Source: Eledone cirrhosa (lineage: Eukaryota). From it: a stretch of 64,000 nt of DNA. Both the position numbers and the translations under genes were made by a program. The notes beneath the pieces are model-generated. The model worked only from the letters and a program-made list of their open reading frames with translations, did no database searches and was not told where the DNA came from. This document shows positions 1,015-49,859 of this stretch, piece after piece (the stretch's first letter is position 1; every line of letters starts with the position of its first letter). The DNA lies in contig OZ024741.1 in NCBI GenBank assembly GCA_964016885.1, forward strand, positions 38,440,001-38,504,000, in the 5' to 3' direction.

Positions 1015-1211
1015 GGAACAAGTATGACCCCGACAGCAGAACTCAAGCCGTTTCGACGACTATTTCTGAACATTTTAGTCCAGAAATAGCCGTCGAAACG
1101 GCTTGAGCTCTGCCGTCGTGGTCATACTTGTTCCGATTACCCACTCTACTACCCTAAGTATTGAGTACTTTGGTGCGTTATGGTCCAGCTGGTTCCTTAC
1201 CACAATTCCTT

Positions 1212-1213
<2 letters not shown>
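1015..1213. repeat. Foldback element, copy 1 (54-bp arms 1015-1068/1081-1134 plus an ~80-bp tail), flanked by (TA)n
   Basis: Near-perfect inverted repeat; homologous copy at 18537-18731. Confidence 0.85.
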
Positions 1214-1255
<42 letters not shown>

Positions 1256-1376
1256 TTATATATATAATATAGGGCGACTGACTGAGGTGAAAGCAGCTAG
1301 TTGGTCAGTCGTCCTCTTGTGTTTGATTTTTTAGCCCCATGGATTTTATCTGTTATGTTCCTTTGTTATATTTCGA

Positions 1377-1434
1377 ATACCTGATGATATCACCGGATTC
1401 ATACGGAACCCGGTCATTGAAATGATCATAGTAT
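1377..1434 (+). ncRNA. Minimal type I hammerhead ribozyme (PLE pLTR type)
   Basis: ATAC-CTGATGA-[stem II ACCGG/CCGGT]-GAA-ATGATCAT (palindromic stem III)-A-GTAT, followed by AATAAA. Confidence 0.75.
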
Positions 1435-1630
1435 AATAAACCTTTCAAGGATTTACACCAGTCCAGCCTCCTGTTATTTTATAATAATTAACACCGTACT
1501 CGCACCACCAACTACACAAATGAAGACAGGTGAACTGCATTACGTTGAGTACTCTCCATAATATTACATCAAGATTTACCATACGGAATAACCAGCTCTA
1601 TCCAGTGGTGAACCAACAAACCTAAATAAA

Positions 1631-1684
<54 letters not shown>

Positions 1685-1778
1685 AATACTATCTAACCAC
1701 ATTTTTGCATATATATCTATGCTCACTACTCCCATTTTCTCCTTACCTCTCCTGTTTCTCTCGCTCACTCTCTCCCCT

Positions 1779-1826
<48 letters not shown>

Positions 1827-1830
1827 TCTT

Positions 1831-1867
<37 letters not shown>

Positions 1868-2286
1868 CTATCTTACCACCTATCTGCATATCTATCTATA
1901 CTCATTTCTCTCATTTTCTCCCTACCTCTCCTGTTTCTCTCCTCCTCTTCTTCAACCCATTATAAATATATCTGCAGGTGCCGACCAAAGTCTGTTATGT
2001 CTATAATAGTCTATGATAGGAAACTTCTGAAGCAAATCTGTTCAAATGAAGTTATTATTGGAATTCCCGCGAGACTGAGTTTTGCAGAAGCTAAGACAAC
2101 GCTGAGCATTTCACTGTTCTGTGATGACAGTTCAGTCACAGTCTGGGACTGCATGGTCGTATCAAAGAGAATCACTTGTCAGACATGTTTCCTTTTAATT
2201 GGCATGGAAAACAGAAATTATTGAGACTCAGGAATGAAGAAAATATTAAAACAACTCATCTTCCTAACATAGAAACACCAATGTGT

Positions 2287-2288
<2 letters not shown>

Positions 2289-2318
<30 letters not shown>

Positions 2319-2595
2319 TGTATGTATGTATGTATGTATGTATGTATGTATGTATGTATGTATGTATGTATGTATGTATTATGAATGTATGTATGTATTA
2401 TGAATGTATGTATGTGTGCATGTATGTATGTGTGTATGTATGTATGAATGAATGTATGCATGACTGTATGTATGTGTGCATGTATGTATGTATGTATGAA
2501 TATATGTATGTATGTGTGCATATATGTATGTATGTGTGCATGTATGTATGTGTGTGCATGTATGTATGTATTTATGTATGTATATATGTATGTAA
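2289..2595. repeat. (TATG)n microsatellite, degenerate
   Basis: Direct reading. Confidence 0.95.
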
Positions 2596-2599
2596 ATAT

Positions 2600-2885
2600 C
2601 ATCTTGGTTAAGAGAGTGGGACTGGCTTTGTACAGTGCCTTTGCTCACCATAAAAGCTTCACGGCACAGGCATTGCTTTATATCTGGAGATTTCTCTGCA
2701 CTTGTCGTCACATGGTACCATGGGCCCAGCACTATGTGTCAATAGTGGTCGCAAGTGTAGTGTTTGTACCAGAGTTTTCAAGTCGCTGGCTGGACTAAAA
2801 AGTTACACTCCTTCAGCGCATCGGTAGTGGTTCTCCTAGATGGATATAATGTAGTGGCCGTACTCGAAAACGAGTTGGCAGCCAC
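2600..2885 (-). mobile_element. Possible highly decayed LINE RT C-terminal fragment
   Basis: Minus frames give LVQTLHLRPLLTHSA and RNLQI*SNA, weakly like LYKxxIRPxLxYxxxxW...KLQxIQNxA. Confidence 0.25.
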
Positions 2886-3493
2886 CACCATATATGTATG
2901 TATGCTTATATATATATGCATGTATGCATTTATGCATGTATGTATGTATGTATGTATGTATGCATATATGTATTTATTTAGGTGTGCATGTATGTATGTA
3001 TGTGTGTTTGTATGCATGTAAGTGTATATATATGTACGTACGTATGCAAATGTGTATATGTATACATGTATGTATGCATGTATGTATGCATATGCATGCA
3101 TACACACACGGATATATGTATACATACATACACATATACATACATACATATATAAAGTCATACATTCTTACTTAAATACATACATAGATACATAATTAGG
3201 ACATTACAAATACAAACCATTAATGGAACTGTAAGAATATGTAGAGGATTCCAGAAATTTATCATATAATTGTATATATACATGTATAGATATATAAATA
3301 TATATTCATGCACATATTGAAAGATTGAAGAATAACATGGTCGGCTGTACAAAAAGGGTTTTATTCCTCGTATTAATAATTGTTTCATTGATCAAAGGCC
3401 ACTAATCAGTCGAAGTTGCGTCACTCGACCTTAAATACAGTGTGTGTCTCTGATAGATTCATCGAGCTCAAAACATAAAAAAGAAGTATATAG

Positions 3494-6400
3494 ACATCCA
3501 TAGCACAGCCATACACACATACACACACCCATACACTAATATATATAATGACATCCATACAGACAGACATACAGACATCCATACATCCATACAGTAGTAT
3601 ATATAATGACATCCATAGCACAGTCATACACACATCTACACATCCATACAATAGTATATATAATGACATCCATAGCACAGCCATACACACATCCATACAT
3701 CCATACAGTAGTATATATAATGACATCCATAGCACAGCCATACACACATCCATACATCCATACAATAGTCTATATAATGACATCCATAGCACAGTCATAC
3801 ACACATCCATACATCCATACAGTAGTATATATAATGACATCCATAGGACAGTCATACACACATCCATACATCCATACAGTAGTATATATAATGACATCCA
3901 AAGCACAGCCATACATACATCCATACATCCATACAGGAGTATATATAATGACATCCATAGCACAGCCATACACACATCCATACATCCATACAGTAGTATA
4001 TATAATGACATCCATAGCACAGCCATACACAAATCTACACATACATACAGTAGTATATATAATGACATCATAGCACAGACATACACACATCCTTACATCC
4101 ATACAGTAGTATATATAATGACATCATAGCACAGCCATACACACATCCATACATCCATACAGTAGTATATATAATGACATCCATAGCACAGCCATACACA
4201 CATCCATACATCCTTACAGTAGTATATAGAATGACATCCATAGCACAGTCATACACACATCCATACATCCATACAGTAGTATCTATATAATGAAATACAT
4301 AGCACAGTCATACACACATCTATACATCCATACAGTAGTATCTATAATGACGTCCATAGCACAGTCATACACACATCTATACATACATACAGTAGTATAT
4401 ATAATGACATCCATAGCACTGCCCTACACACATCTATACATCCATACAGTAGTCTATATAATGACATCCATAGCACTGTCATACACACATCCATACATCC
4501 ATACAGTAGTATATATAATGACATCCATACCACAGTCATACACACATCCATACATCCATACAGTAGTCTATATAATGACATCCATACCACAGCCATACAC
4601 ACATCTATACATCCATACAGTTGTATATATAATGACATCCATAGCACAGCCATACACACATCTATACATCCATACACTAGTATATAGAATGACATACATA
4701 GCACAGTCATACACACATATATACATCCATACAGTAGTATATATAATGACATCCATAGCACAGTCATACACACATCCATACATACATACAGTAGTATATA
4801 TAATGCCATCCATAGCACAGTCATACACACATCCATCCATACATACAGTAGTATATATAATGACATCCATAGCACAGTCATACATACATCTATACATCCA
4901 TACAGTAGTCTATATAATGACATCCATACCACAGCCATACACACATACATACATACATACATACAGTAGTATATAGAATGACATCCATAGCACAGTCATA
5001 CACACATCCTTACATCCATACAGTAGTATATATAATGACATCCATACCACAGCCATACACACATCCATACATCCATACAGTAGTCTATATAATGACATAC
5101 ATAGCACAGTCATACACACATCTATACATCCATACAGTAGTATATATAATGACATCCATACCACAGACATACACACATCTATACATCCATACAGTAGTAT
5201 ATATAATGACATACATAGCACAGTCATACACACATCCATACATCCATGCACTAGTATATATAATGACGTCCATAGCACAGTCATACGCACATGCATACAT
5301 CCATACAGTAGTATATATAATGACATCCATAGCACAGCCATACACACATCTATACATACATACAGTAGTATATATAATGACATCCATCGCACAGTCATAC
5401 ACACATCTATACATCCATACAGTAGTATATATAATGACATCCATACCACAGCCATACACACATCCATACATCCATACTGTAGTATATATAATGACATCCA
5501 TAGCACAGTCATACACACGTTTATACATCCATACAGCAGTATATATAATGACATCAATAGAACAGCCATACACACATCTATACATCCATACAGTAGTATA
5601 TATAATGACATCCATAGCACAGCCATACACACATCCATACATCCATAGACTAGTATATATAATGACATCCATACCACAGCCATACACACATCTATACATC
5701 CATAGAGTAGTATATATAATGACATCCATAGCACAGCCATACACACATCTATACATCCATACAGTAGTATATATAATGATATCCATAGCACAGCCATACA
5801 CACATCCATACATCCATACACTAGTATATATAATGACATCCATACCACAGCCATACACACATCTATACATCCATACAGTAGTATATATAATTACATCCAT
5901 CGCACAGCCATACACACATCTATACATCCATACAGTAGTATATATAATGACATCCATACCACAGTCATACACACATCAATACCTCCATACAGTAGTATAT
6001 ATAATGACATCCATAGCACAGTCATACACACATCCATACATCCATACAGTAGTATATATAATTACATCCATAGCACTGTTATACACACATCCATACATCC
6101 ATACAGTAGTATATATAAAGACATCCATAGCACTGCCATACACACATCCACACATCCATACAGTAGTATATATAATGACATCCATAGCACTGTTATACAC
6201 ACATACATACATCCATACTGTAGTATATATAATGACATCCATAGCACAGTCATACACACATCCATACATACTGTAGTATATATAATGACATCCATAGCAC
6301 AGTCATACACACATCCATACATCCATACAGTAGTATATATAATGACATCCATAGCACAGCCATACACACATCTATACATCCATACAGTAGTATATATAAT

Positions 6401-9400
6401 GACATCCATAGCACAGCCATACCCACATCTATACATCCATACAGTAGTCTATATAATGACATCCATAGCACAGCCATACACACATCTATACATCCATACA
6501 GTAGTATATATAATGACATCCATAGCACAGTCATACACACATCCATACATACATACAGTAGTATATATAATGACATCCATACCACAGTCATACACACATC
6601 CATACATCCATACAGTAGTATATATAATGACATCCATAGCACAGTCATACACACATCCATACATCCATACTGTAGTATATATAATGACATCCATAGCACA
6701 GCCATACACACATCCATACATCCATATAGTAGTATATATAATGACATCCATAGCACAGCCATACACACATCCATATATCTATACATCCATATAGTAATAT
6801 ATATAATGACATCCATACCACAGCCATACACACATCAATACATACATACAGTAGTCTATATAATGACATCCATAGCACAGCCATACACACATCTATACAT
6901 CCATACAGTAGTTTATATAATGACGTCCATAGCACAGCCATACACACATCCATACATCCATACAGTAGTCTATATAATGACATCCATAGCACAGACATAC
7001 ACTCATCCGTACGTCCATACTGTAGTATATATAATGACATCCATAGCACATCCATACACACATGCATACATCCATACAGTAGTATATATAATGACATCCA
7101 TAGCACAGCCATACACACATCCATACATCCATACATCCATACACTATTAAATATAATGACATCCATAGCACAGCCATACACACATCCATACATCCATACA
7201 GTAGTATATATAATGACATCCGTACCACAGTCATACACACATCTATACATCGATACAGTAGTATATATAATGACATCCATAGCACAGCCATACACACATC
7301 CATACATACATACAGTAGTATATATAATGACATCCATAGCACAGCCATACACACATCCATACATCCATACAGTAGTATATATAATGACATCCATAGCACA
7401 GTCATACACACATCCATACATCCATAAAGTAGTATATATAATGACATCCATAGCACAGCCATACACACATCTTTACATCCATACAGTAGTCTATATAATG
7501 ACATCCATAGCACAGACATACACACATCCATACATCCATACTGTAGTATATATAATGACATCCATAGCACATCCATACACACATCCATACATCCATACAG
7601 TAGTATATATAATGACATCCATAGCACAGTCATACACACATCCATACATCCATACAGTAGTATATATAATGACATCCATAGCACAGCCATACACACATCT
7701 TTAGATCCATACAGTAGTATATAGAATGACATCCATAGCACAGCCATACACACATCCATACATCAATACAGTAGTCTATATAATGACATCCATACCACAG
7801 CCATACACACATCTATACATCGATACAGTAGTATATATAATGACATCCATAGCACAGCCATACACACATACATACATACATACAGTAGTATATATAATGG
7901 CATCCATAGCACAGCCATACACACATCTATACATCCATACAGTAGTATATATAATGCCATACATAGCTCAGTCATACACACAGCTATACATCCATACAGT
8001 AGTATATATAATGACATCATAGCACAGCCATACACACATCCTTACATCCATACAGTAGTATATATAATGACATCCATAGCACAGCCATAAACACATCCAT
8101 ACATCCATACAGTAGTATATATAATGACATCCATACCACAGCCATACACACATCCATACATCCATACAGTAGTATATATAATGACATCCATACCACAGTC
8201 ATACACACATCTATACATCCATACAGTAGTATATATAATGACATCCATAGCACAGTCATACACACATCCACACATCCATACACTAATGTATATAATGACG
8301 TCCATAGCACTGCCATACACACATCTATACATCCATACAGTAGTATATATAATGACATCCATAGCACAGCCATACACACATCTATATATCCATACAGTAG
8401 TATATATAATGACATCCATAGCACAGTCATACACACATCCACACATCCATACAGTAGTATATATAATGACATACATAGCACAGTCATACACACATCTATA
8501 CATCCATATAGTAGTATATATAATGACATCCATACCACAGTCATACACAAATCTATACATACATACAGTAGTATATATAATGACATCCATAGCACAGTCA
8601 TACACACATCCACACATCCATACACCCATCCATACATCCATAAAGTCGTATATATAATGACATCCATAGCACAGTCTTACACACATACATACATCCATAC
8701 AGTAGTATATATAATGACATCCATACCACAGTCATACACACATCCATACATCCATACAGTAGTATATATAATGACATCCATACCACAGTTATACACACAT
8801 CTATACATACATACAGTAGTATATATAATGAAATCCATACCACAGCCATACACACATCCATACATCCATACACTAGTATATATAATGACATCATAGCACA
8901 GCCATACACACATCTATACATCCATACTGTAGTATATATAATGACATCCATAGCACAGCCATACACACATCTATACATCCATACAGTAGTATATATAATG
9001 ACATCCATACCACAGTCATACACACATCTATACATCCATACAGTAGTATATAGAATGACATCCATAGCACAGTCATACACACATCCACACATCCATACAC
9101 TAGTGTATATAATGACGTCCATAGCACAGCCATACACACATCTATACATCTATACAGTAGTATATATAATGACATCCATAGCACAGTCATACACACATCC
9201 ACACATCCATACAGTAGTATATATAATGACATACATAGCACAGCCATACACACATCCATACATCCATACAGTAGTATATATAATGACATCCATACCACAG
9301 TCATACGCACATCTATACATCCCTACAGTAGTATATATAATGACATCCATAGCACAGCCATACACACATCTATACATCCATACAGTAGTATATATAATGA

Positions 9401-12290
9401 CATCCATAGCACAGCCATACACACATCTATACATCCATACAGTAGTATATATAATGATATCCATAGCACAGCCATACACACATCTATACATCCATACAGT
9501 AGTATATATAATGACATCCATAGCACAGTCATACACACATCTATACATCCATACAGTAGTATATATAATGACATCCATAGCAGAGCCATACACACATCCA
9601 TACATACATACAGTAGTATATATAATGACATCCATACCACAGCCATACACTCGTCTATAGATCCATACAGTAGTATATATAATGACATCCATAGCACAGT
9701 CATACACACATCTATACATCCATACAATAGTATATATAATGCCATCCATACCACAGTCATACACACATCCATACATACATACAGTAGTATATATAATGAC
9801 ATCCATAGCACAGCCATACACACAGCTACACATCCATACAGTAGTATATATAATGACATCCATAGCACAGCCATACAAGCATCTATACATCCATACAGTA
9901 GTATATATAATGACATCCATAGTACAGCCATACACACATCTATACATCCATACTGTAGTATATATAATGACATCCATAGCACAGCCATACACACATCTAT
10001 ACATCCATACAGTAGTATATATAATGACATCCATAGCACAGCCATACACACATCCATACATCCATACAGTAGTATATATAATGACATCACATCACAATCA
10101 TACACACATCTATACATCCATACACTAGTATATATAATGACATCCATAGCACAGTCATACACACATCCATACATCCATACTGTAGTATATATATAATGAC
10201 ATCCATACCACAGCCATACACCCATCCATACATCCAGAAAGTGGTATATATAATGACATCCATAGCACAGCCATACACACATCCATACATACATACAGAA
10301 GTATATAGAATGACATTCATAGCACAGTCATACACACATCTATACATCCATACAGTAGTATATATAATGACTCCCATAGCACAGCCATACACACATCTAT
10401 ACATCCATACTGTAGTATATATAATGACATCCATAGCACAGCCATACACACATCCGTACATCCATACAGTAGTATATATAATGACATCCATAGCACAGCC
10501 ATAAACACATCTATACATCCATACAGTAGTATATATAATGACATCCATAGCACAGTCATACATACATACATACATACATCCATACTGTAGTATATATAAT
10601 GACACCCATAGCACAGGCATACACACATCTATACATCCATACTGTAGTATATATAATGACTTCCATAACACAGCCATACACTCATCTATACATCCATACA
10701 GTAGTATATATAATGACATCCATAGCACAGTCATACACACATACATACATCCATACAGTAGTATATATAATGACATCCATACCACAGTCATACACACATC
10801 TATACATCCATACAGTAGTATATATAATGACACCCATAGCACAGCCATACACACATTTATACATCCATACAGTAGTCTATATAATGACATCCATAGTACA
10901 GCCATACACACATCCATACATCTATACAGTAGTATATATAATGACATCCATAGCACAGCCATACACACATTTATACATCCATACACTAGTATATATAATG
11001 ACATCCATAGCACACTCATACACACATCTATACATCCATACAGTAGTAGATATAATGACATCCATAGCACAGCCATACACACATTTATACATCCATACAC
11101 TAGTATATATAATGACATCCATAGCACAGTCATACACACATCTATACATCCATACAGTAGTATATATAATGACATCCATAGCACAGCCATACACACATCA
11201 ATACCTCCATACAGTAGTATATATAACGACATCCATACCACAGTCATACACACATCTATACATCCATACAGTAGTATATATAATGACATCCATAGCACAG
11301 TCATACACACATCCATACATCCATACTGTAGTATATATAATGACATCCAAAGCACAGCCATACACATATCCATACATCCATACAGTAGTATATATAATGA
11401 CATCCATAGCACAGTCATACACACATCTATACATCCATACAGTAGTATATATAATGACATCCATAGCACAGCCATACACACATCCATACATCCATACAGT
11501 AGTATATATAATGACATCCATAGCACAGTCATACACACATCTATACATCCATACAGTAGTATATATAATGACATCCATAGCACAGTCATACACACATCTA
11601 TACATCCATACTGTAGTATATATAATGACATCCATAGAACAGTCATACACACATCTATACATCCATACTGTAGTATATATAATGACATCCATACCACAGT
11701 CATACACACATCTATACCTCCATACAGTAGTCTATATAATGACATCCATAGCACAGTCATACACACATCTATACATCCATACAGTAGTATATATAATGAC
11801 ATCCATACCACAGCCATACACACATCTATACATCCATACAGTAGTATATATAATGACATCCATAGCACAGCTATACACACATCTATACATCCATACAGTA
11901 GTCTATATAATGACATCCATACCACAGGCATACACACATCTATACATCCATACACTAGTATATATAATGACATCCATAGCACAGCCATACACACATCCAT
12001 ACATCCATACAGTAGTATATATAATGACATCCATAGCACAGTCATACACACATCCATACATCCATACTGTAGTATATATAATGACATCCAAAGCACAGCC
12101 ATACACATATCCATACATCCATACAGTAGTCTATATAATGACATCCATAGCACAGTCATACACACATCTATACATCCATACAGTAGTATATATAATGACA
12201 TCCATAGCACAGCCATACACACATCCATACATCCATACAGTAGTATATATAATGACATCCATAGCACTGCCATACACACATCCACACATA
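3494..12290. repeat. 57-bp minisatellite array, about 154 copies
   Basis: Consensus ATGACATCCATAGCACAGCCATACACACATCCATACATCCATACAGTAGTATATATA (57 nt = 19 codons), which explains the periodic MTSIAQPYTHPYIHTVVYI ORFs. Confidence 0.98.
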
Positions 12291-18236: not shown

Positions 18237-18382
18237 ATATTTATTAAAATAACAGATTAAAGTTTAAGCAACGAATCGCTGCTTGCACCCTTAACGGGAA
18301 TTTCTGAAAAGAGTTTCAGAAGATCCCGTTAAGGGTGAAAGCACCGATTCTTTGCTTAAACTTTAATCTGTTATTTTAATAA

Positions 18383-18386
<4 letters not shown>
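18237..18386. repeat. Foldback of the CAGAAGA-hammerhead family (73-bp arms, 4-nt loop)
   Basis: Arms 18237-18309 and 18314-18386; (TA)n on both sides. Confidence 0.85.
18312..18362 (+). ncRNA. Hammerhead-like motif with CAGAAGA core variant
   Basis: AGTTT-CAGAAGA-TCCC/GGGT-GAA-AGCA...TGCT-T-AAACT. Confidence 0.5.
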
Positions 18387-19895: not shown

Positions 19896-20773
19896 AACAA
19901 AGTCAATCTGTAAACGCAGAACTGAATATTTCAAAAAACGTTGCAACCGGAGGAAGACAGGAAGACGATAGTTTGGTTCGTGGTAACGTTCGCTGGCAAA
20001 GAACAGGAAAAAACGAATAATATGTCATTAATAGGAGCGGTGATAAAATAAAGTACCAGTAATGTACTGGATAATTGCTGGCCTTGTGCCTAAAATAGAA
20101 ACAATTAATAGGAGCGGTGAAAAACAATTACGCGCAAAGACAGAACCACGTTTATGGTATAAAAGAGGTCGTAGACTAATGTTCTCTGAAGTGGTGCATA
20201 GAGACGTTCTCTGGCAATGAACGAAAAAACGAAGATAATAAGTCATATGTGGTGCGTGGAGAACAATAGCACGCAAAGAAAAGCCACGTAAATGGTATAG
20301 CATAAGTCGTAGACTAAAATTCTAACTAGGAGACCGAATGAATCTCCGCTACAGAGTTAAGAACAAAGTAAATAAATACAATACAGAAGTAATAGAAACA
20401 AATAAATACATACACGCAAACAGATACGTACATACACAAGCATACGCAAAACCTTACCATAGGTATACAAAACCACACACATATAAATATATGTGTGTGT
20501 GTATGCTTGTGTACAAATAAATAAATAATTATATAAACGTATATAAGTAAATAAATACGTATATAACAAGCGCACACGCATACCTACATATAAATACACG
20601 AATGTTCGGAGACGTAAGTCAACTAAAACAAGAAGTACACATATACACACACCCGCCATACGTACGAACCTGCATACTCACGCAGACGTAAAACTCCCGT
20701 ATACACATAGCCAAACCCTAAATACCAGAATGTGTAAAAATTATACGCCATAACATATATATAAAAGAAAACT

Positions 20774-21085
20774 TTTTTCGCTCTACATAGCTGAATACAA
20801 TAAATGTAATCTCAGTTTTTCGAATATTAATAATAACATTCGATTCGTTTGCAATTATGCAAACAAGCCTCATTTTTAAAGCCATGTCAGTAGAATGAAC
20901 CCCTCATTGTTGCTCTTGTGTTGGCATGTAAACAGAACTGCAGACATTAATATTTCCAGGTTCATTCAACTGACATGGCTTTAAAAATCAGGCTTGTTTG
21001 CATAATTGCAAACGAATCGAATGTTATTATTAATATTCGAGAAACTCAGATTACATTTATAGTATTCAGCCATGTAGAGCGAAAA

Positions 21086-21087
<2 letters not shown>
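20774..21087. mobile_element. Foldback MITE, ~128-bp TIRs around a ~57-bp spacer, in (TA)n
   Basis: Arms 20774-20902 and 20959-21087. A second copy with the same spacer lies in the opposite orientation at 24582-24885, and a partial copy at 28455-28547. Confidence 0.8.
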
Positions 21088-21155
<68 letters not shown>

Positions 21156-22073: not shown

Positions 22074-24519
22074 CGGGTGTGTATGATTGTGTATAGAAGA
22101 TTATATTAATAAAAGGAATTCCAACTTTGTCTGATTTACTCGTTTTATTTAAAATCCTTTAAAATTATAATGATATTACCGTCAAATATAGACCACAACA
22201 TCATGAAGAAGATCAACAACCTGGCTTCAAAATTCTACAACTCACTTACTGATAATGAAAGAGACTACATCACCAGTTTTGAGCCAAAACCCAGCAACTT
22301 TTGTGGCTTACCGAAAATTCATGTCAAAAGAAATCCAACTGGCAGTAAAAGAATAAAAAAGTGAGTATATTAAATTACTACACCCCAAAGACTTAAAACT
22401 TAGACCTATTATAGCTGGTCCAACATGCCCTACCCACCGTCTAAGCAATTTTGTTGACATTATTTTGAAACCACCATGTATTTCCATACCCAGTTTCATC
22501 CCAGATGATATCGACTTCCTGTCCCAACTTCCCAAAACCACGGAAACGAATTTACTTCTACTTAGTTTTGATGTGGTAAGCATTTACACCAACATTATAC
22601 ATGATTTAGGAATAAAGGTGGTTAAATACTGGGTGGAAAAACAGAGAGTAGTGATACCCACCTGATTCACAGTGCCATTTATATTAGACGCAGTCAGACT
22701 TATTCTGGAAAACAACATATTCTTCGTCAATGGAAAGAATTACATCCAAATTAGAGGCACAGCGATGGGGACGAAGTTTGTTCCCGTTTACGCGAACTCT
22801 GTAATGGGATAATTAGAACAACAACTCAACCAAGGGATAGAGGAAAAATATAGAACTGAATTTAGAAAGTACATTGAAAAGTCTTGGAAGAGATACTTTG
22901 ACGACTGTTTCATCATCTGGACAGAATCTCCAGATACTCTGGATGAGTTCAATATCCTTCTGAATAACCTACACCCATCTCTCCAATTTACAAAAGAGAT
23001 GAGTAGTACCAAATTACCATTCCTAGATATAATGGTAATCAAAAACGACACCACCATTACCACGGATATATACTATAAACACACAGACACCCATCAATAT
23101 CTGAATTTTAAGCCGTGCCATCCACCTCATATAAAACGCAACATCCCATACTGCCTAGCCAAAAGAATTTGTACCATTGTAGAAGATACCAGGAACAAAC
23201 GCCTAACAGAACTGAGAGAATTTTTGCTCAAACAAAAATACCCACCTCTACTTATAGAAAATGGCATACACTGGGCTATAAAAATACCTATACAACAACT
23301 TAGGTCAACCCAAGGAAGAAGAAACCAAGAACTGGTCATACCATTTATAATGACACACAACCCATGTCACCAGAATATCTTTAACACCGCTAAAGCAAAC
23401 CTACCGATCATTGCTCAAAGTAATGAATTAAAAAGTTTAATCACAGACCGATCTTTGACTCTTAGTAAAAGACAGCCGAAAAATTTGAATCAATTACTAA
23501 CAAAGGCAAAGTTTTCCCTTAATAACAAAGACCAATCATTAACTGTATCTAAATGCAATGATAGTCGATGTGGCACATGTCAATCCATACACACTGGTCA
23601 ATATATGAAAACAAAAACTGGAAAAAATATTCCCGAAACCAAATATGAACTGCAAAAGCAGAAATCTAATTTACTGCATTAAATGCCCGAATTATGAAGA
23701 ACTATATGTCGGTCAATCTGGAAATGCACTATCGGAACGTGCACGGGTGCACCGACAGCAAATCAGAGACCCAAATGTCCGTCAGATACCCCTGAGTAAC
23801 CATCTAGCAACATGTGGTCAGAAAATATTTATAATATTTCCATTCTACAAACTACACAGCCCAAGTGAAATCAAGAGAAAAATTAAAGAAAAGAATTTTA
23901 TTGATGAATTCCAACCCAAGCTAAATGAAAATAATAATGCTTAGGGGTATTACTTCTACTATGACTACGCCTATAACCATGTCGACTGCCACCACTAACA
24001 ACAATAACAATAGTAATAATAAAAGTGATGTTGATGTTGATGATTACTGAAGATTTTTTATAAAAACCCTAGTAAATCCTATTTTCATCATTTCTAAAAA
24101 TAGCAAAACAATTGAAGCTTTGGATAGGGTCAAATAGATGTCGTTATACATGCTCAATCAGACCTGATGCCTAAACTAATCAGCTTTAGTAATCTAGTGA
24201 AACCACACAGCGATTGGTCGAAATACAGTTTGCAAAACTTAGCATTCTGTAGCCCCTTTTTACTGTATATAAGGCTCAGATTTTAGCCATCTCATTACAG
24301 TTGAATATTGACAACTTGACTGTCACCACTGAATATGAACCTGCGATTGCGAAAGCATGAAACTACTTGTTCAATTAACACTTAACATTTAATGTTCTAC
24401 CATAATATTTCATTCTAATATCATTATAATTTTAAAGGATTGTAAATAAAACGAGTAAATCAGACAAAGTTGGAATTCCTTTTATTAATATAATCTTCTA
24501 TACACAATAATACACACCC

Positions 24520-24522
<3 letters not shown>
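22074..24522 (+). mobile_element. 5'-truncated Neptune-type Penelope-like element with inverted terminal repeat
   Basis: 22074-22178 is the reverse complement of 24418-24522. It encloses the decayed RT-GIY-YIG ORF and is flanked by (TA)n. Confidence 0.93.
22179..23944 (+). pseudogene. Disrupted PLE reverse transcriptase-GIY-YIG endonuclease ORF
   Basis: GLPKIH, LRPII, SFDVVSIYTNI, QIRGTAMG, RYFDDC (22891), LPFLD, CHP, Cys linker CNDSRCGTC, then NLIYCIKC...YVGQSG...R...H...PKLN. At least 2 stops and 2 frameshifts. Confidence 0.93.
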
Positions 24523-24581
<59 letters not shown>

Positions 24582-24583
<2 letters not shown>

Positions 24584-24885
24584 CTCTATATGGCTGAATA
24601 CAATAAATGTAATCTGAGTTTCTCGAATATTAATAATAACAATCGATTCGTTTGCAATTATGCAAACAAGCCTCATGTCAGTTGAATGAACCCGGAAATA
24701 TTAGTGTCTGCAGTTCTGTTTACATGCCAACACACGAGCAACAATGAGGGGTTCATTCTACTGACACGGCTTTAAAAATGAGGCTTGTTTGCATAATTGC
24801 GAATGAATCGATTGTATTTATTTATATCCATCAACTCAGATTACATTTATTGTATTCAGCCATGTAGAGCGAAAAAAGTACTCTT
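24582..24885. mobile_element. Foldback MITE, copy 2
   Basis: Same TIRs and spacer as 20774-21087, reversed. Confidence 0.8.
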
Positions 24886-24912
24886 TATATATATATATAT
24901 ATATATATATAT

Positions 24913-25744: not shown

Positions 25745-26358
<614 letters not shown>

Positions 26359-26405
26359 AGTGACGAAAACATAAGTCAATTGCATGAACTCATAGTCCTT
26401 TATTT

Positions 26406-26461
26406 ACTGCTATATATATTTCGATGATAGCCATTGAATGTCTATGACCTCATCAGGAAGT
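26406..26461 (-). ncRNA. Minimal type I hammerhead
   Basis: Reverse complement ACTTC-CTGATGA-stem II-GAA-ATATATAT-A-GCAGT. Confidence 0.7.
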
Positions 26462-27191
26462 TTGTCAGTTCTTAGATATGCCAGGACATATGAGCTTGTT
26501 AGGAATAATTTAATATTGTCACCAGGAATAGTCTTAATTCTCATTGGCCAGTTTGTAGGTGCTAGTAGGGTTAGTATATGACCTCAAAGAGGCAGGTGGT
26601 GTTGTAAAGTTCAAACCGTCAGGCAAGATGACAATAGTTCCATATGACTGATTTTCACACAAAGCATTCCTGGTCAGATATATATTCAATTAAGGTTAAT
26701 AGTATGACTCTAACCATTATTTTAAGTATTACAACCCCACATTAATTCCTCAATTTGTATGTGTGGATGTGTGTGTGTGCCTGTGGAGGTGGGTGTGAGT
26801 GTACGTGCAAGCCAACCTACATAAGTAAATTTTCTACTCTAACCATAATTTTCAGTAGCACCACTATACATAAATTCCTCAATTTAAGAATGACCTGTAG
26901 TATCTATTTCATACTATTAACCTTAATTGAATATATATTTGACCAGGAATGCTTTGTGTGAAAATCAGTCATATGGAACTATTGTCATCTTGCCTGACGG
27001 TTTGAACTTTACAACACCACCTTCCTCTTTGAGGTCAAATACCAACCCTACTAGCACCTACAAACTGACCAATGAGAATTAAGACTATTCCTGCTGACAA
27101 CATTAAATTATTCCTAACAAGCTCATATGTCCCAAGGCTCTGATACCATCAACACTATAAACACAGAGCTGGCATATCTAAGAATTAACTA

Positions 27192-27247
27192 ATTGCCTGA
27201 TGAGGTCATAGCCATTTAATGGCTATCATCGAAATATATATAGCTGT
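27192..27247 (+). ncRNA. Minimal type I hammerhead
   Basis: ATTGC-CTGATGA-[ATAGCCA/TGGCTAT]-GAA-ATATATAT-A-GCTGT. The consensus of the two arms restores stem I as ACTGC/GCAGT. Confidence 0.7.
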
Positions 27248-27379
27248 AAATAAAGAATTATGAGTTCATGCAATTGACTTATGTTTTCGTCACTATTATA
27301 ACTCCGGAACTTATATCTTCGTTGAGTGCTCCCTATCCGCATACTGAAGTACTGGATTTTACCAACACTTACTTCCTTG

Positions 27380-27469
<90 letters not shown>

Positions 27470-27596: not shown

Positions 27597-28345
27597 AATC
27601 GGAATTAAGAGTATTCCGCAGTTCACAGTAATAATAATCATATTAGCTCAAAGAGGAATAGAGAATTTTCTTCTGAGCTCAGATACAAATATATTACACA
27701 AAGAGAAGTGTGTTACACAGTGAGATGTGTGTAAAGAATTATTACAAGTGAGTTTTACCGTTACTGTATAGAAAACAATATCTACAGGTTTAGCAATTAA
27801 ATAGAAAAAAACTAAGTCAGAATCAAATCACTGAAGTAGAGTTTTAAATTACCAACCTTATAACTATAAGTTTGCTGATACGAATCAAGTTCGTTTCCCC
27901 ACAGAAATGTGCAGTTTAACAGCCACAGGTTTATCAGTCAGCAAATGTGGATTCTGTTTACTACACATCTAACCTCATGGATAGAGAGAAAGCTGATATA
28001 CACGCTGCCCAGGATAGGGCGAAATCACGTGTTATTTGCATCAAATAACGGCTCTCATGGATTGGGGAAAATGCTAAAGAGTGCAGCCCAAACATTCGAA
28101 TTTATTAGCTCAACAATTTGGAGTTCGTTAAGTGTACGATAATCGGCATTAAGAGTATTCCGCAGTTCACAGTAATAATAATAATATTACCTCAAAGAGA
28201 AATAGAGAATTTTCTTCTGAGCTCAGATACAAATATATTACACAAAGAGAAGTGTGTTACACCGTGAAATGTGTGTAAAGAATTATTACAAGTGAGTTTT
28301 ACCGTTACTGTATAGAAAACAATATCTACAGGTTTAGCAATTAAA
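27597..28345. repeat. Partial tandem unit, 544-bp period, between (TA)n tracts
   Basis: 27597-27803 recurs at 28141-28345; a degenerate hammerhead-like motif lies at ~27989-28040. Confidence 0.8.
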
Positions 28346-28352
28346 TACACAG

Positions 28353-28760: not shown

Positions 28761-29042
28761 GATAAATATATATATATATTTTTTTCTCTCTCTCGTCTAC
28801 GATTTCACAGAACTTATGTTTACCGAATTCACGGACTAGACCCCTTTTTCCTCCCGTTAGACCTGTGCGAAATTCATTCCTTGCTCACATTTCAACCAGG
28901 TTTGATGGTTTTTATTCTCTCTCGTTCACGATTTCACCGAACTTATATTCAGGGAAATTTGGGACTTGACTCGTTCTTCCTCACTTTTCGTTGCTTCACC
29001 GTCTTTGTTTGTTTACACTCTCGCTGTTCCCTTTATTTACAT

Positions 29043-29144
29043 GTCCCAACGTCTTTCTTTAGCCGTTGCTCGCACCAACCGGAGGTATATGGTCTTTAAA
29101 GCGAAGAAATACCGATGATGCTTGGAAGAACACTGATGAAGGAC
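29043..29144 (+). ncRNA. Candidate non-circularly permuted hammerhead, extended form
   Basis: GGTAT-A-TGGTCTT...GAA-ATACC...AAGAACA-CTGATGA, plus GTCC/GGAC, CAACG/CGTTG, TCGC/GCGA and CCAA/TTGG. Confidence 0.65.
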
Positions 29145-29151
29145 CACTTTA

Positions 29152-29187
<36 letters not shown>

Positions 29188-30175: not shown

Positions 30176-30220
<45 letters not shown>

Positions 30221-30271
30221 CTCTTCCTTCTATGTTGTTTACTTGTCTCACTCGCTTTACGCGTTTCACTT

Positions 30272-30373
30272 GTCCCAATAGATTATTTTAGTTATTGCTC
30301 GCACCAACCTGAGGTATATGATTTTTAATGCGATGAAATACCAATGATCGTTGGCAAATCACTGATGAGGGAC
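30272..30373 (+). ncRNA. Candidate non-circularly permuted hammerhead, extended form
   Basis: GGTAT-A-TGATTT (30313-24), GAA-ATACC (30335-42), AAATCA-CTGATGA (30356-68), GTCCC/GGGAC, TCGC/GCGA, CCAAC/GTTGG. Confidence 0.75.
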
Positions 30374-30431
30374 TAATTTTATAATATGTAATCCATGTGC
30401 AACCATGCAGTATTCTTCTCCCCATGTTTTT

Positions 30432-30503
<72 letters not shown>

Positions 30504-34202: not shown

Positions 34203-34287
34203 CTAGTGATTTTGAAGCAAATCCTCCTTATTTAAATTAACTTTATCTGTTCAACGCTTTATAAGAGTCTGAGAGATCGGCTTCTTT

Positions 34288-34329
<42 letters not shown>

Positions 34330-34467
34330 AAGCCGATCTCTCAGCCTCTTATAAAGCGTTGAACAGAAAACGTTAATTTATATAATGATGTGCTCATGCG
34401 CAGGATGCTATAGAATAGCATATAAAATAGGGCAAAGACTCTGAAAAGAGGAAAAAAGAAGTTGCCT

Positions 34468-40326: not shown

Positions 40327-41357
<1,031 letters not shown>

Positions 41358-41420: not shown

Positions 41421-41540
41421 TTCGTTTCTGAATTTGTTTAGCAAGATTCTTTATCTGAAATCGTGTGTTGAAACCGATATTGTTATACTTTGGGAGGGTC
41501 ATGTTGCCAATAAGAAACACACGCACCATATATATATATA

Positions 41541-41688
41541 TGAAGGCGTGTGGCTGTGTAGTTAGAGAATTGGATTCGCAATCGTGAGGTTGTGAGTTCG
41601 ATTCCCGGACCGGGTGGTGCGTTATGTCCTTGAGCAAGATACTTTATTTCACGTTGCTCCTTCGACCTGGAGTTGTGACGGATAAATA
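41541..41688 (+). mobile_element. SINE family B variant; inverted copy at 42766-42914
   Basis: tRNA head with GTTCGATTCC; reverse-complement match between the two copies. Confidence 0.8.
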
Positions 41689-41930: not shown

Positions 41931-42546
41931 ATCGTTTGGTAAATCACTGATGAGGGACTCACTTTATAACATGTTATCCATGTGCAACCAGCAGTATTCT
42001 TCTCACCCATATTTTTCATATATTTACCCAAACTGCAATTCTGTGTTTCTCTCTTTCTCTCTTACTGCTCCCTCGTTCTCTCTGTTTCTCTTACTTTCTT
42101 TCGTCCCCTCTGCCATGTCAGTTAACTCTTTCTCTCTACTGACCTCTTCCTCGCACTCCCACTCACTCAGTCCCTATTTCTCCCCTTCTTTCTTCCTCCC
42201 GTTCGCTGGGAAAACGGTTTTCATTCTTTCTTACACCGGATTCACTAGCGAAAGGTCTGTTTTCTGACTTGCTCATATATTCACACAGCTTATGCTGAAA
42301 GAATATCTATGTTGCTTGTGTTTATTTCCATCTTCGGTTAGCTTTCCCCTGTGTTGTTTACTTGTCTAACTCGCTTTACGCATTTCTATCGTCCTAATAA
42401 CTTATTTTAGTTATTATCGCTCCAACGTGAGGTATATGATTTTTAATGCGATGAAATACCCATGATCGTTTGGTAAATCACTGATGAGTGACTCATTTTA
42501 TAACATGTTATCCATGTGCAACCAAGAGTATTCTTCTCACCCATAT

Positions 42547-42552
<6 letters not shown>
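41931..42552 (+). repeat. Partial tandem unit, 534-bp period, carrying the permuted hammerhead
   Basis: CTGATGA at 41947 and 42481 with ~90 bp of shared context. Confidence 0.85.
42391..42492 (+). ncRNA. Candidate non-circularly permuted hammerhead, extended form
   Basis: GGTAT-A-TGATTT, GAA-ATACC, AAATCA-CTGATGA; hairpin TAATAAC/GTTATTA; TCGC/GCGA. Confidence 0.7.
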
Positions 42553-42695: not shown

Positions 42696-42910
42696 ACAGT
42701 CGATCGACGTTCGTCAAATCGGACCGAGGAAACAGTGTTTCCATTTGTCTTTCCAATTGCTAATACTATTTATCCGTCACAACTCCAGGTAGAAGGAGCA
42801 ATGTGAAATAAAGTATCTTGCTCAAGGACATAACGCACCACCCGGTCCGGGAATCGAACTCACAACCTCAGGATTGCGAATCCAATTCTCTAACCACACA
42901 GTCACACGCC

Positions 42911-43000
<90 letters not shown>

Positions 43001-48305: not shown

Positions 48306-48924
48306 TAAGAAACACACATCTCTTAGATATGTGTCATATGCTAATGTATAAAATGTATAAAATGTCATGCTTAAGCGAGCATCAAATGATTTGGAGCGTG
48401 AATTTGTCTTACATGAAAAGTTGTACAAACAGCATATTTTCTATAGCTGCACCTATTTTCCGTCACACAGTGAATCGGAAATGATGTTTATCTAGGTAAT
48501 CTAGACATAAGGTCATATATTATTGCTGTAGGGTAGAATATAGTGGATTATATTGACATGGGGAGTGATGAAAGACAAAGTCCCTCTTTTGTGTGATTTG
48601 AACTCAGGGCGTAACTAAATAACGAGACAGATTTAATCATTTGTCGGTCTATCGAATCAGCCACCGTCATCATCTTTCCTAATTAGAAATATTAGCTTCT
48701 AATTTTAGGCTCAGAACCAGCAATTTTGATGGCCTGGGTGGGCTAAGTCAATTAGTTCGAACAAGTATTGACTGTTACTATATTATATATTTTATGGATC
48801 CCAAAAGGATAAAGAAGGAAAGTTGACTTCTGCGGGATTTGAAACCAGAACATAAATATATATATATATAGCTTAAAATGGAGTGGGAATAAGAAGAAAG
48901 CAAGAACGGGGGGGGGGGGGGGGG

Positions 48925-49028
48925 ATTCCTCATCAGTTGTCTACTGGGGGTCTCGGATATTTCTACGCTTTAAAGACAAGATATCTACTGCCCAGAGCGT
49001 CAATAACTGGATACGTTATTGGGGAAAC
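48925..49028 (-). ncRNA. Candidate non-circularly permuted hammerhead (AUC triplet)
   Basis: Reverse complement GATAT-C-TTGTCT...GAA-ATATC...AGACAA-CTGATGA. Confidence 0.7.
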
Positions 49029-49622
49029 GGAGGAGGGAGGGACGGAAAAAAAAGGGAAGAGAAGAGAGAAAACAGTGAAAAAACAACAACAATGCGACCA
49101 ACTGTGAAGGCGAGAGAAAAGACACACGTCTGACCCCAGTGAGTTGTAAGTGAGAAAAGGACTACTAGAGGGTGGGGCGAGGTAAACAATGAGGTGGCAA
49201 GTAGAGAGAGGATGAGTGTAAGTGAGAGCTACCTTAAGCTACCTTAAATAACAACTACACAGCCATTTCTATTCTCCATATATTTTATCATGTTTTCGCT
49301 GTGACCCTTCTTCTCTCCCCTTCTACCTACCTATTTCGCTACTATTTACTCTCACCCCTCTTTCTTCCTCACCCTTTCTCCCTCTCACTTTCACTCATCC
49401 TCTCTCTGTCTGCCACCTCATTGTTTCCCTCGCCTGACCCTATAGTAGTCCTTTTCTCACTTAAAACTCGCTGGGGTCAGACGTGTGTCCTTTCTCTCGC
49501 CCACACAGTCGAGTGGTTTTGGATTTTCTTACCGTAAGTTGCTCGCACATTGCTCGGTTTGTTGTTTTTTGTCGCTGTTTTCTCTCTTCTCTTCCCTTTT
49601 GTTTTCCTTCCCTTCCTCCTCC

Positions 49623-49728
49623 GTTTTCCCAATAACTTATCCAGTTATTGACGCTCTGGGCGGTAGATATATTGTCTTTAAAGCGTAGAAATATCCGACA
49701 CCCCCAGTAGACAACTGATGAGGAAAAC
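49623..49728 (+). ncRNA. Candidate non-circularly permuted hammerhead, best-paired copy
   Basis: GTTTTCC/GGAAAAC, CAATAAC/GTTATTG, ACGC/GCGT, CTGGG/CCCAG, GATAT/ATATC and TTGTCT/AGACAA are all perfect. GAAA at 49688, CTGATGA at 49715. Confidence 0.78.
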
Positions 49729-49809
49729 TCTCCCCGTTCTTGCTTTCTTCTTATTCCCACTCCATTTTAAGCTACCTTAAAAGCAACTACACAGCCATTT
49801 CTACTCTCC

Positions 49810-49859
<50 letters not shown>

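Follow-up and report, generated by a model that had tools for sequence, protein, structure and literature searches.

Protein-less PLE-type repeats with a predicted permuted hammerhead in a 64-kb stretch of Eledone cirrhosa DNA

Four partial tandem repeats and their surroundings

The stretch of DNA analyzed here, termed the window, comprises 64,000 nucleotides of the Eledone cirrhosa genome (contig OZ024741.1, positions 38,440,001 to 38,504,000) and is AT-rich animal DNA crowded with microsatellites and satellites. The initial annotation described four unrelated islands in this window, each consisting of one unit plus a partial direct repeat, without an ORF, abutting (TA)n and containing an intact or degenerate hammerhead. 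Self-alignment of the window confirmed the four partial tandems, with E values of 3e-13 to 5e-99. The direct repeats were located at 41931-42026/42465-42559 in island A (41931 to 42552, plus strand; period 534, 94%), 49234-49288/49767-49820 in island B (period 533, 91%), 27591-27803/28135-28347 in island C (period 544, 97%), and 40316-40531/40942-41157 in island D (period 626, 97%). All four islands adjoin (TA)n, and the longest ATG ORF in the majority dimer of each family was 36 to 105 aa, in agreement with the reported lack of an ORF. The families have no coding capacity, and their units have a GC content of 36 to 44%, within the limit of <50% that applies to retrozymes.

The islands were, however, not all unrelated. 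The A and B units align (58% over ~450 nt, E value of 1e-8) and have one RNA fold in common; in the unit comparison, families C and D matched neither A/B nor each other. An inverted piece of B, the minus-strand sense of the island at 27597, and two further A-type copies had been overlooked. The insertions and the hammerheads of families C and D are as follows.

27598 to 28347, minus strand (sense): family C insertion, a 544-nt unit plus a 206-nt partial unit
27874 to 27942, minus strand: canonical type I hammerhead of family C, with G8 changed to A in the window copy
28779 to 29161, plus strand: truncated copy of the older A subfamily A3 (636-nt unit), with a ribozyme at 29036-29152 and the short 3′ end
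30217 to 30433, plus strand: truncated copy of subfamily A1b, with a ribozyme at 30265-30381
40327 to 41150, plus strand: family D insertion, a 626-nt unit plus a ~200-nt partial unit
40778 to 40913, plus strand: candidate type I hammerhead of family D, with a U3-A8 core (UUGANAA) and long stems II and III
41931 to 42552, plus strand: family A insertion (young subfamily A1), a 5′-truncated partial unit plus one full 534-nt unit, with its 3′ end on (TA)n
41931 to 42018, plus strand: partial upstream A1 unit (unit positions 447-534), with only the 3′ strand of stem I plus CUGAUGA (41941-41953) and without the cut site or GAAA
48869 to 49228, minus strand: 5′ piece of the B insertion in inverted orientation, which ends at the shorter 3′ end of family B and has a second ribozyme copy at 48917-49032
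49234 to 49812, plus strand: family B insertion (older), a 47-nt partial unit plus a 533-nt unit, with a permuted hammerhead at 49619-49734 and a predicted cut after 49671

The window contains five complete permuted-ribozyme copies. The focal A insertion has just one, as its partial upstream unit is without the cut site and GAAA.

A motif scan for a canonical CUGANGA followed by GAAA within 60 nt detected none in any of the four islands, CUGAUGA being the sole part of the motif that it recovered in A and B. Scans of islands A and C alone against Rfam detected no hammerhead, only weak snoRNA or intron matches, and the best 150 of 228 rows obtained with the whole window belonged to microRNA and snoRNA models, most of them on simple repeats. 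The presence of hammerheads was borne out in part. A canonical type I core is present in the majority sequence of family C, where stem I is of 8 bp and stem III is full; the window copy is broken by the G8A change. Family D has a candidate, with N7 varying and a majority that folds as a three-way junction. With full stems III, the ribozymes of families C and D are predicted not to need dimers. The core of A and B, on the other hand, is not degenerate but complete and permuted, as described below.

Other repeats were noted in the window. A 57-bp unit is repeated ~154 times (91% matches) in an array at 3493-12289, with some frames open for 600 to 700 codons of repeat. Inverted SINE-like copies, 97% identical and ~1.1 kb apart, lie on either side of the A island at 41528-41688 and 42767-42927, and the same 25-nt end of another PLE-like family occurs inside TA runs at ~41481 and ~42595. 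Another ORF-less, TA-flanked repeat, a fifth family of like kind, forms an inverted pair (26198-26707, minus strand; 26909-27467, plus strand), each arm of which has a type I hammerhead-like core with a palindromic stem III and CUGAUGA at 26456 and 27197, respectively.

Dispersed copies and insertion ends

First-look candidates in the genome numbered 3,027 for A, 2,379 for B, 1,118 for C, and 2,836 for D, spread across many contigs (40 scored for each). Compared with the family majority, the A1 copies had a median identity of 99.1% (30 loci), and 20 loci per family gave medians of 89.8% in B, 94.5% in C, and 97.4% in D. In a window full of microsatellites and satellites, the islands might have been local tandem duplications in unstable TA-rich DNA, but this explanation is refuted by the dispersed copies, with 1,118 to 3,027 first-look candidates per island on many contigs and a common 3′ end, and has practically no chance of being correct; single-copy duplications, which the initial annotation had named as grounds for abandoning its reading, were not what was found.

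The 3′ ends of all 30 A1 loci were at unit positions 531-534 beside a TA run, these being the best-scoring loci and biased to long copies, and within the upstream unit the 5′ ends of these loci were scattered between positions 22 and 456. An alternative, shorter 3′ end was located 38 nt earlier in B and A3 and ~85-90 nt earlier in C, with none being detected in the A1 and D loci examined. Inverted 5′ pieces were present in 6 of 20 B, 12 of 20 C, 2 of 30 A1, and 0 of 20 D loci. At each 3′ end, the sequence of the element itself continues into the next unit as TAT or TA, which matches the target. Insertion into (TA)n is itself a PLE-type feature, target-site duplications being unreadable inside TA runs.

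A position-ordered sample was taken from one contig. Thirty-nine of its 65 elements were well assigned; the other 26, on the badly bounded A2 unit, were left out. Fifteen of the 39 cross a unit junction and 24 are no longer than one unit, with most 3′ ends lying 72 or 110-115 nt past the predicted cut. A pile-up of 5′ ends at the cut, hinted at by 7 of the 30 best-scoring A1 loci, was absent from the position-ordered sample, in which no 5′ end lay within 15 nt of the predicted cut, and was dropped. The initial annotation had asked whether copy boundaries are circularly permuted. They are not, as each family has one or two fixed 3′ end sites and 5′ ends that are truncations, as in PLEs, with no pile-up at the predicted cut. 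Arrays of three to ~four units exist (L194 and L186). Two or more complete ribozymes in tandem are present in L177, L186, and L194, compared with one in the focal insertion. L186 is an array of ~four A1b units, one of which has an internal deletion.

Traits listed for PLEs comprise partial tandems, a fixed 3′ end with 5′ truncation, inversions, a 30-40 nt tail, and (TA)n (PMC8557442). The families exhibit a partial tandem with a fixed 3′ end, 5′ truncation, an inverted piece, an optional tail, and (TA)n, and the islands are very probably non-autonomous PLE-type elements. The Naiad elements described in that paper have in common with them the (TA)n target, partial tandems, 5′ inversions, and the 30-40 nt tail, but Naiad has an ORF whereas the families here have none; in the available part of the same source, non-autonomous PLEs are noted only for Chlamys, e.g., MRC1. 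The families also resemble non-LTR retrozymes (PMC7229834; bioRxiv 10.64898/2026.07.22.740005) in being ORF-less, a few hundred nucleotides long, and of <50% GC, in having one hammerhead per unit and a range from monomers to multimers, and in their proposed PLE origin. Unlike the retrozymes of those two sources, most copies here are dispersed and of 0.3 to 2 units, with PLE-type fixed ends and inversions. The element type, a non-autonomous, hammerhead-bearing PLE derivative, is already known in outline.

A predicted permuted hammerhead in families A and B

Comparison of the A and B majorities revealed all of the core letters of a hammerhead in the order cleavage block, GAAA block, and CUGANGA block (S-G-C). 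The parts of the focal copy are as follows.

42391 to 42492, plus strand: permuted hammerhead of the family A focal copy, with a predicted four-way junction
42391-94 with 42489-92, plus strand: helix y, one mismatch in the focal copy
42395-42416, plus strand: hairpin h
42417-20 with 42448-51, plus strand: helix a, in the role of stem II
42422-26 with 42468-73, plus strand: helix x (interaction strand)
42431-35 with 42456-60, plus strand: stem III
42436 to 42437, plus strand: site of predicted self-cleavage (after U16.1-A17), placed from the analogy to hammerheads
42437-42 with 42475-80, plus strand: stem I
42453-56, plus strand: GAAA
42481-87, plus strand: CUGAUGA

The strand before GAAA pairs upstream (helix a) and not with the strand after CUGAUGA, which itself pairs with an upstream strand (helix y). 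The upstream strand of helix a is followed by the x strand and preceded by the hairpin and the partner of y, an arrangement predicted to bring the core, the hairpin, and helices y and a together at a four-way junction. Canonical type I and type II readings of A/B were rejected, as the stems do not form. With one change in helix y and one complete ribozyme, the focal copy itself probably cannot release a unit-length RNA.

The fold was scored on 24 copies from six subfamilies. For 32 pairs in six helices, 93.9% of 768 cells were paired, compared with 24.9 to 46.1% in controls with slid partners, the structure having been derived from the same sequences on which it was scored. Fourteen pairs had a two-sided change, including three in stem I, one in helix a, one in stem III, and four in helix x; as most two-sided changes separate A from B, these represent few independent covariation events. 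For the measure of further pair types, the real alignment fell below all 500 shuffles, and the register of helix y has to be shifted by one base to pass from A to B. A homology-free descriptor produced 131 hits, 116 of them with helices a and x, versus 0 to 1 in ten shuffles, in a scan of 0.79 Mb made up of the window and of loci chosen for holding family copies. Among 81 position-ordered copies chosen by a pattern without the CUGANGA block, this block was intact in 73, N7 was U in 61 and C in 20, and the core-flanking pair was A-U in 38, G-U in 32, and U-A in 5. A 30-nt degenerate core pattern had 8,338 exact matches in the genome and none for the reversed control, a count that refers to one pattern and may miss distant families with the A/B fold; a pattern scan of metagenomes was empty. 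Deviations at core and other positions were 0.004 and 0.009 in A1, 0.004 and 0.010 in A3, and 0.041 and 0.073 in B (small counts), the core thus deviating about half as often. These analyses point to a conserved A/B fold that is in all likelihood real, and the predicted ribozyme would probably self-cleave.

A bulge of three nucleotides with tandem G.A, between stem III and helix x (42427-42430 and 42461-42467), has kink-turn-like letters in 12 of 12 A rows, resembling the kink-turn consensus. The opposing GA is present in just 2 of 12 B rows, and similar letters occur in octopus Naiad ends.

The A/B fold could instead be real but catalytically dead, acting as a protein-binding scaffold for the RT particle, with a kink-turn-like element between III and x. 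A core interrupted between A9 and stem II, as it is here, would suit a scaffold, as would the bulge and tandem G.A found in every A row, albeit with the opposing GA in so few B rows. Such a role is improbable, since the conserved letters are those needed for catalysis, N7 and H17 vary as they do in active hammerheads, and in A1, A3, and B the core deviates at approximately half the rate of other positions (on small counts).

The predicted A/B hammerhead is closest to the type-SGC hammerhead HRIMA-1 and its variants (PMC10085705), with which it has in common the S, G, C block order, all core letters, a short linker between stems I and II, and an extra helix tying these two stems together. Covarying stems (I, II, and III), together with the I/II helix, were all found in A/B, but the contiguity of CUGANGA with stem II was not. 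In type SGC, the 5′ strand of stem II follows CUGANGA, whereas in A/B this strand is situated upstream of the cleavage block, with helix y and the hairpin as its tether. Furthermore, cleavage has been shown for type SGC and is predicted for A/B. Splitting of a hammerhead block was assumed by Eckert et al. (2023, PMC10085705) not to occur. Retrozymes are defined by a type I hammerhead (PMC7229834), and A/B, with the order S-G-C and a non-circular permutation, differ from this definition and would be missed by such descriptors. The focal family therefore differs from both retrozymes and type SGC, as it lacks both a type I hammerhead and contiguous blocks. The A/B wiring was not found described in the literature searched, including the available parts of Forgia et al. 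2023 (PMC10162972) and PMC13725137, and the supplements of Eckert et al. could hold closer SGC variants.

The published Naiads were inspected for this layout. Craig et al. (2021, PMC8557442) found no canonical hammerhead in them, and 8 of 54 are marked "HHR_half_core" in their table. By eye, the ends of Naiad_Obim and Naiad_Ovul in File S5 of that paper have the A/B strand order with other letters, the family A hairpin loop, and a 6-bp helix a directly before GAAA. The crustacean Naiad_EuTe has the layout 3′ of the ORF; its letters are unrelated, its stem III is 10 bp long, and its linker is of 3 nt. Neither Naiad_Ppla nor the incomplete Naiad_Omin exhibits it, so that three of the five published Naiad 3′ ends inspected do so.

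If A/B cut, the known occurrence of non-circularly permuted hammerheads would extend from environmental RNA to an animal genome, in >8,000 copies, and the three hammerhead blocks could no longer be assumed to be indivisible. The scoring of Naiads as being without a hammerhead or as having half a core would also be explained.

The mobilizing enzyme and the RNA template

None of 120 family loci had a PLE ORF joined to the unit. Six Neptune- or Poseidon-type proteins from the genome matched 6 of the 120 loci, either on the other strand or several hundred bases off the unit. With a longest ORF of 36 to 105 aa, the families also lack the ORF with RT and GIY-YIG that marks an autonomous PLE. The initial annotation had offered solo pseudo-LTRs as one identity for the islands, and copies that always adjoin PLE ORFs would have made them ordinary pseudo-LTRs. 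An identity as solo pseudo-LTRs, or as stubs from the 3′ UTR of some undiscovered autonomous PLE, would be in keeping with the likeness of the sub-unit copies to 5′-truncated PLE ends and with the >10,000 first-look GIY-YIG candidates in the genome, of which 150 were scored and 50 loci examined. However, the 3′ UTRs from these 50 loci matched none of the four family profiles, the 120 family loci were free of a joined ORF, and in tandem copies the 3′ end of a unit runs directly into the first base of the next with no ORF in between. This last junction indicates that the unit is the whole element and not a pseudo-LTR, and a solo pseudo-LTR origin is very unlikely.

Searches for a Naiad parent gave mainly remnants. 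Peptide motifs of Naiad (N-terminal GIY-YIG, CxC, and DKA) were absent from the window and from loci L001-L170. The genome contains 92 Naiad-like RT matches, mostly with stops or partial; no permuted ribozyme was detected downstream of the 24 Naiad-like RT remnants checked, and no intact Naiad was found in the genome. Nothing in the genome matched an exact motif taken from the octopus Naiad end or the initial RT pattern, a looser RT pattern identified six decayed places, and a Naiad-like stretch had no match in a protein database, which is weak evidence. A Naiad enzyme as the present mobilizer can be proposed only tentatively.

Neptune-type ORFs of 844 to 1,096 codons are present in the genome. 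As judged by eye, five Neptune 3′ UTRs (L122, L123, L130, L133, and L134) carry minimal hammerheads with a U3-A8 core and a palindromic stem III, these hammerheads following long microsatellite-filled UTRs. The U3-A8 core variant is known from the minimal hammerheads of PLE pseudo-LTRs (Cervera & de la Pena 2014, PMC4209133), and family D resembles these in its core, although the pseudo-LTR hammerheads sit in ORF-bearing elements. The common U3-A8 core is a hint that family D rides a Neptune. Mimicry of a Neptune-family 3′ end by A was considered and rejected, as the local score was not significant (shuffle P values of 0.07 to 0.14).

Any insertion longer than ~115 nt reads through the cut site, so that its template was either uncut or re-joined. 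Non-majority variants are common to neighboring units 2 to 13 times oftener than between loci. Lineage variants were found in both neighboring units in 150 of 209 cases (68/77 in C, 44/51 in D, 22/31 in A3, 16/45 in B, and 0/5 in A1, the last being an artifact of TA sequence at the 5′ junction), and 34 private variants were common to neighboring units. These shared variants are compatible with repeated copying of one unit, as would happen on a circle, and also with homogeneous tandem masters. A circular template with run-around copying is thus about evenly balanced. Circular RNA has been shown for retrozymes (PMC7229834; bioRxiv 10.64898/2026.07.22.740005), whereas the families here are known from DNA sequence; of nine Xenopus retrozyme dimers, only one cleaved.

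Alternatively, the same PLE-type elements might have linear, uncut transcripts as templates, produced by a small number of tandem master loci, with any cutting serving just to trim and no circle being formed. Uncut RNA was the main substrate of the Anolis Poseidon enzyme in vitro and cleavage was not needed (PMC11167929). The arrays of three to ~four units in L194 and L186, the 24 copies, out of 39 sampled, that do not exceed one unit, and the within-insertion differences of A1 (18.8 per kb, inflated by one foreign piece, versus 18.3 between loci) would also suit a linear template. Against this, 5′ truncation alone would only shorten each round, so that longer-than-unit copies would need regenerating, and neighboring units share variants 2 to 13 times oftener than loci do, with the high concordance of C (68/77), D (44/51), and A3 (22/31). 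Copying from linear transcripts is rather unlikely.

The overall reading that we prefer, with a probability of roughly 0.7, is that the islands belong to families of protein-less, multi-copy repeats mobilized in trans by a PLE enzyme and that the focal family has an S-G-C hammerhead predicted to cut after 42436. A copy with two or more units would be transcribed, the ribozyme would cut once per unit, and the monomer may, at about even odds, be re-joined into a circle. A PLE enzyme would then nick a TA run and start copying from a fixed position within the RNA, 72 or ~110-115 nt beyond the cut, at which the RNA itself reads TAT(AT); the end positions are observed, and the chemistry is proposed from Anolis Poseidon, for which priming was reported to be internal, from two fixed sites located downstream of the hammerhead (Frangieh et al. 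2024, PMC11167929). The two 3′ ends of the families match these two priming sites, Poseidon differing in bearing an ORF. Copying would proceed around the unit and stop at random, giving the observed products of 0.3 to ~4 units, at times with an inverted 5′ piece. The low concordance of B (16/45) and the ~1% divergence of A1 alongside decayed Naiad remnants count against this explanation. Insertion of ribozyme-processed RNA by a PLE RT, as suggested in the initial annotation, therefore stands as far as non-autonomous, ribozyme-bearing, PLE-style insertions are concerned and fails with respect to permuted ends.

A wider scenario would have Naiads and their protein-less parasites sharing a seventh hammerhead wiring, an SGC ribozyme interrupted within the catalytic block and closed again through a four-way junction, which would cut and circularize RNAs of ~530-640 nt. 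These circles would be copied round by PLEs and, in this genome, would have outlived their Naiad parent and now depend on another PLE clade such as Neptune; this is speculative and on the unlikely side. Being small, young, and free of protein, the families offer material for asking whether circular RNA gives rise to PLE tandems.

Additional PLE-type remains were observed in the window. A decayed Neptune-type PLE with an RT plus a GIY-YIG at the C terminus (Pfam E value of 4.7e-7) is located at 22085-24520; its 580-nt 3′ UTR ends on (TA)n, an inverted copy of its own tail is present at the 5′ end, and a relative with a 636-aa open frame occurs at locus L124. Many short palindromic insertions, including those at 18237-18386, 20755-21105, 24542-24912, and 34225-34388, lie beside or around TA runs and are probably tail-plus-inversion stubs of PLE-type elements.
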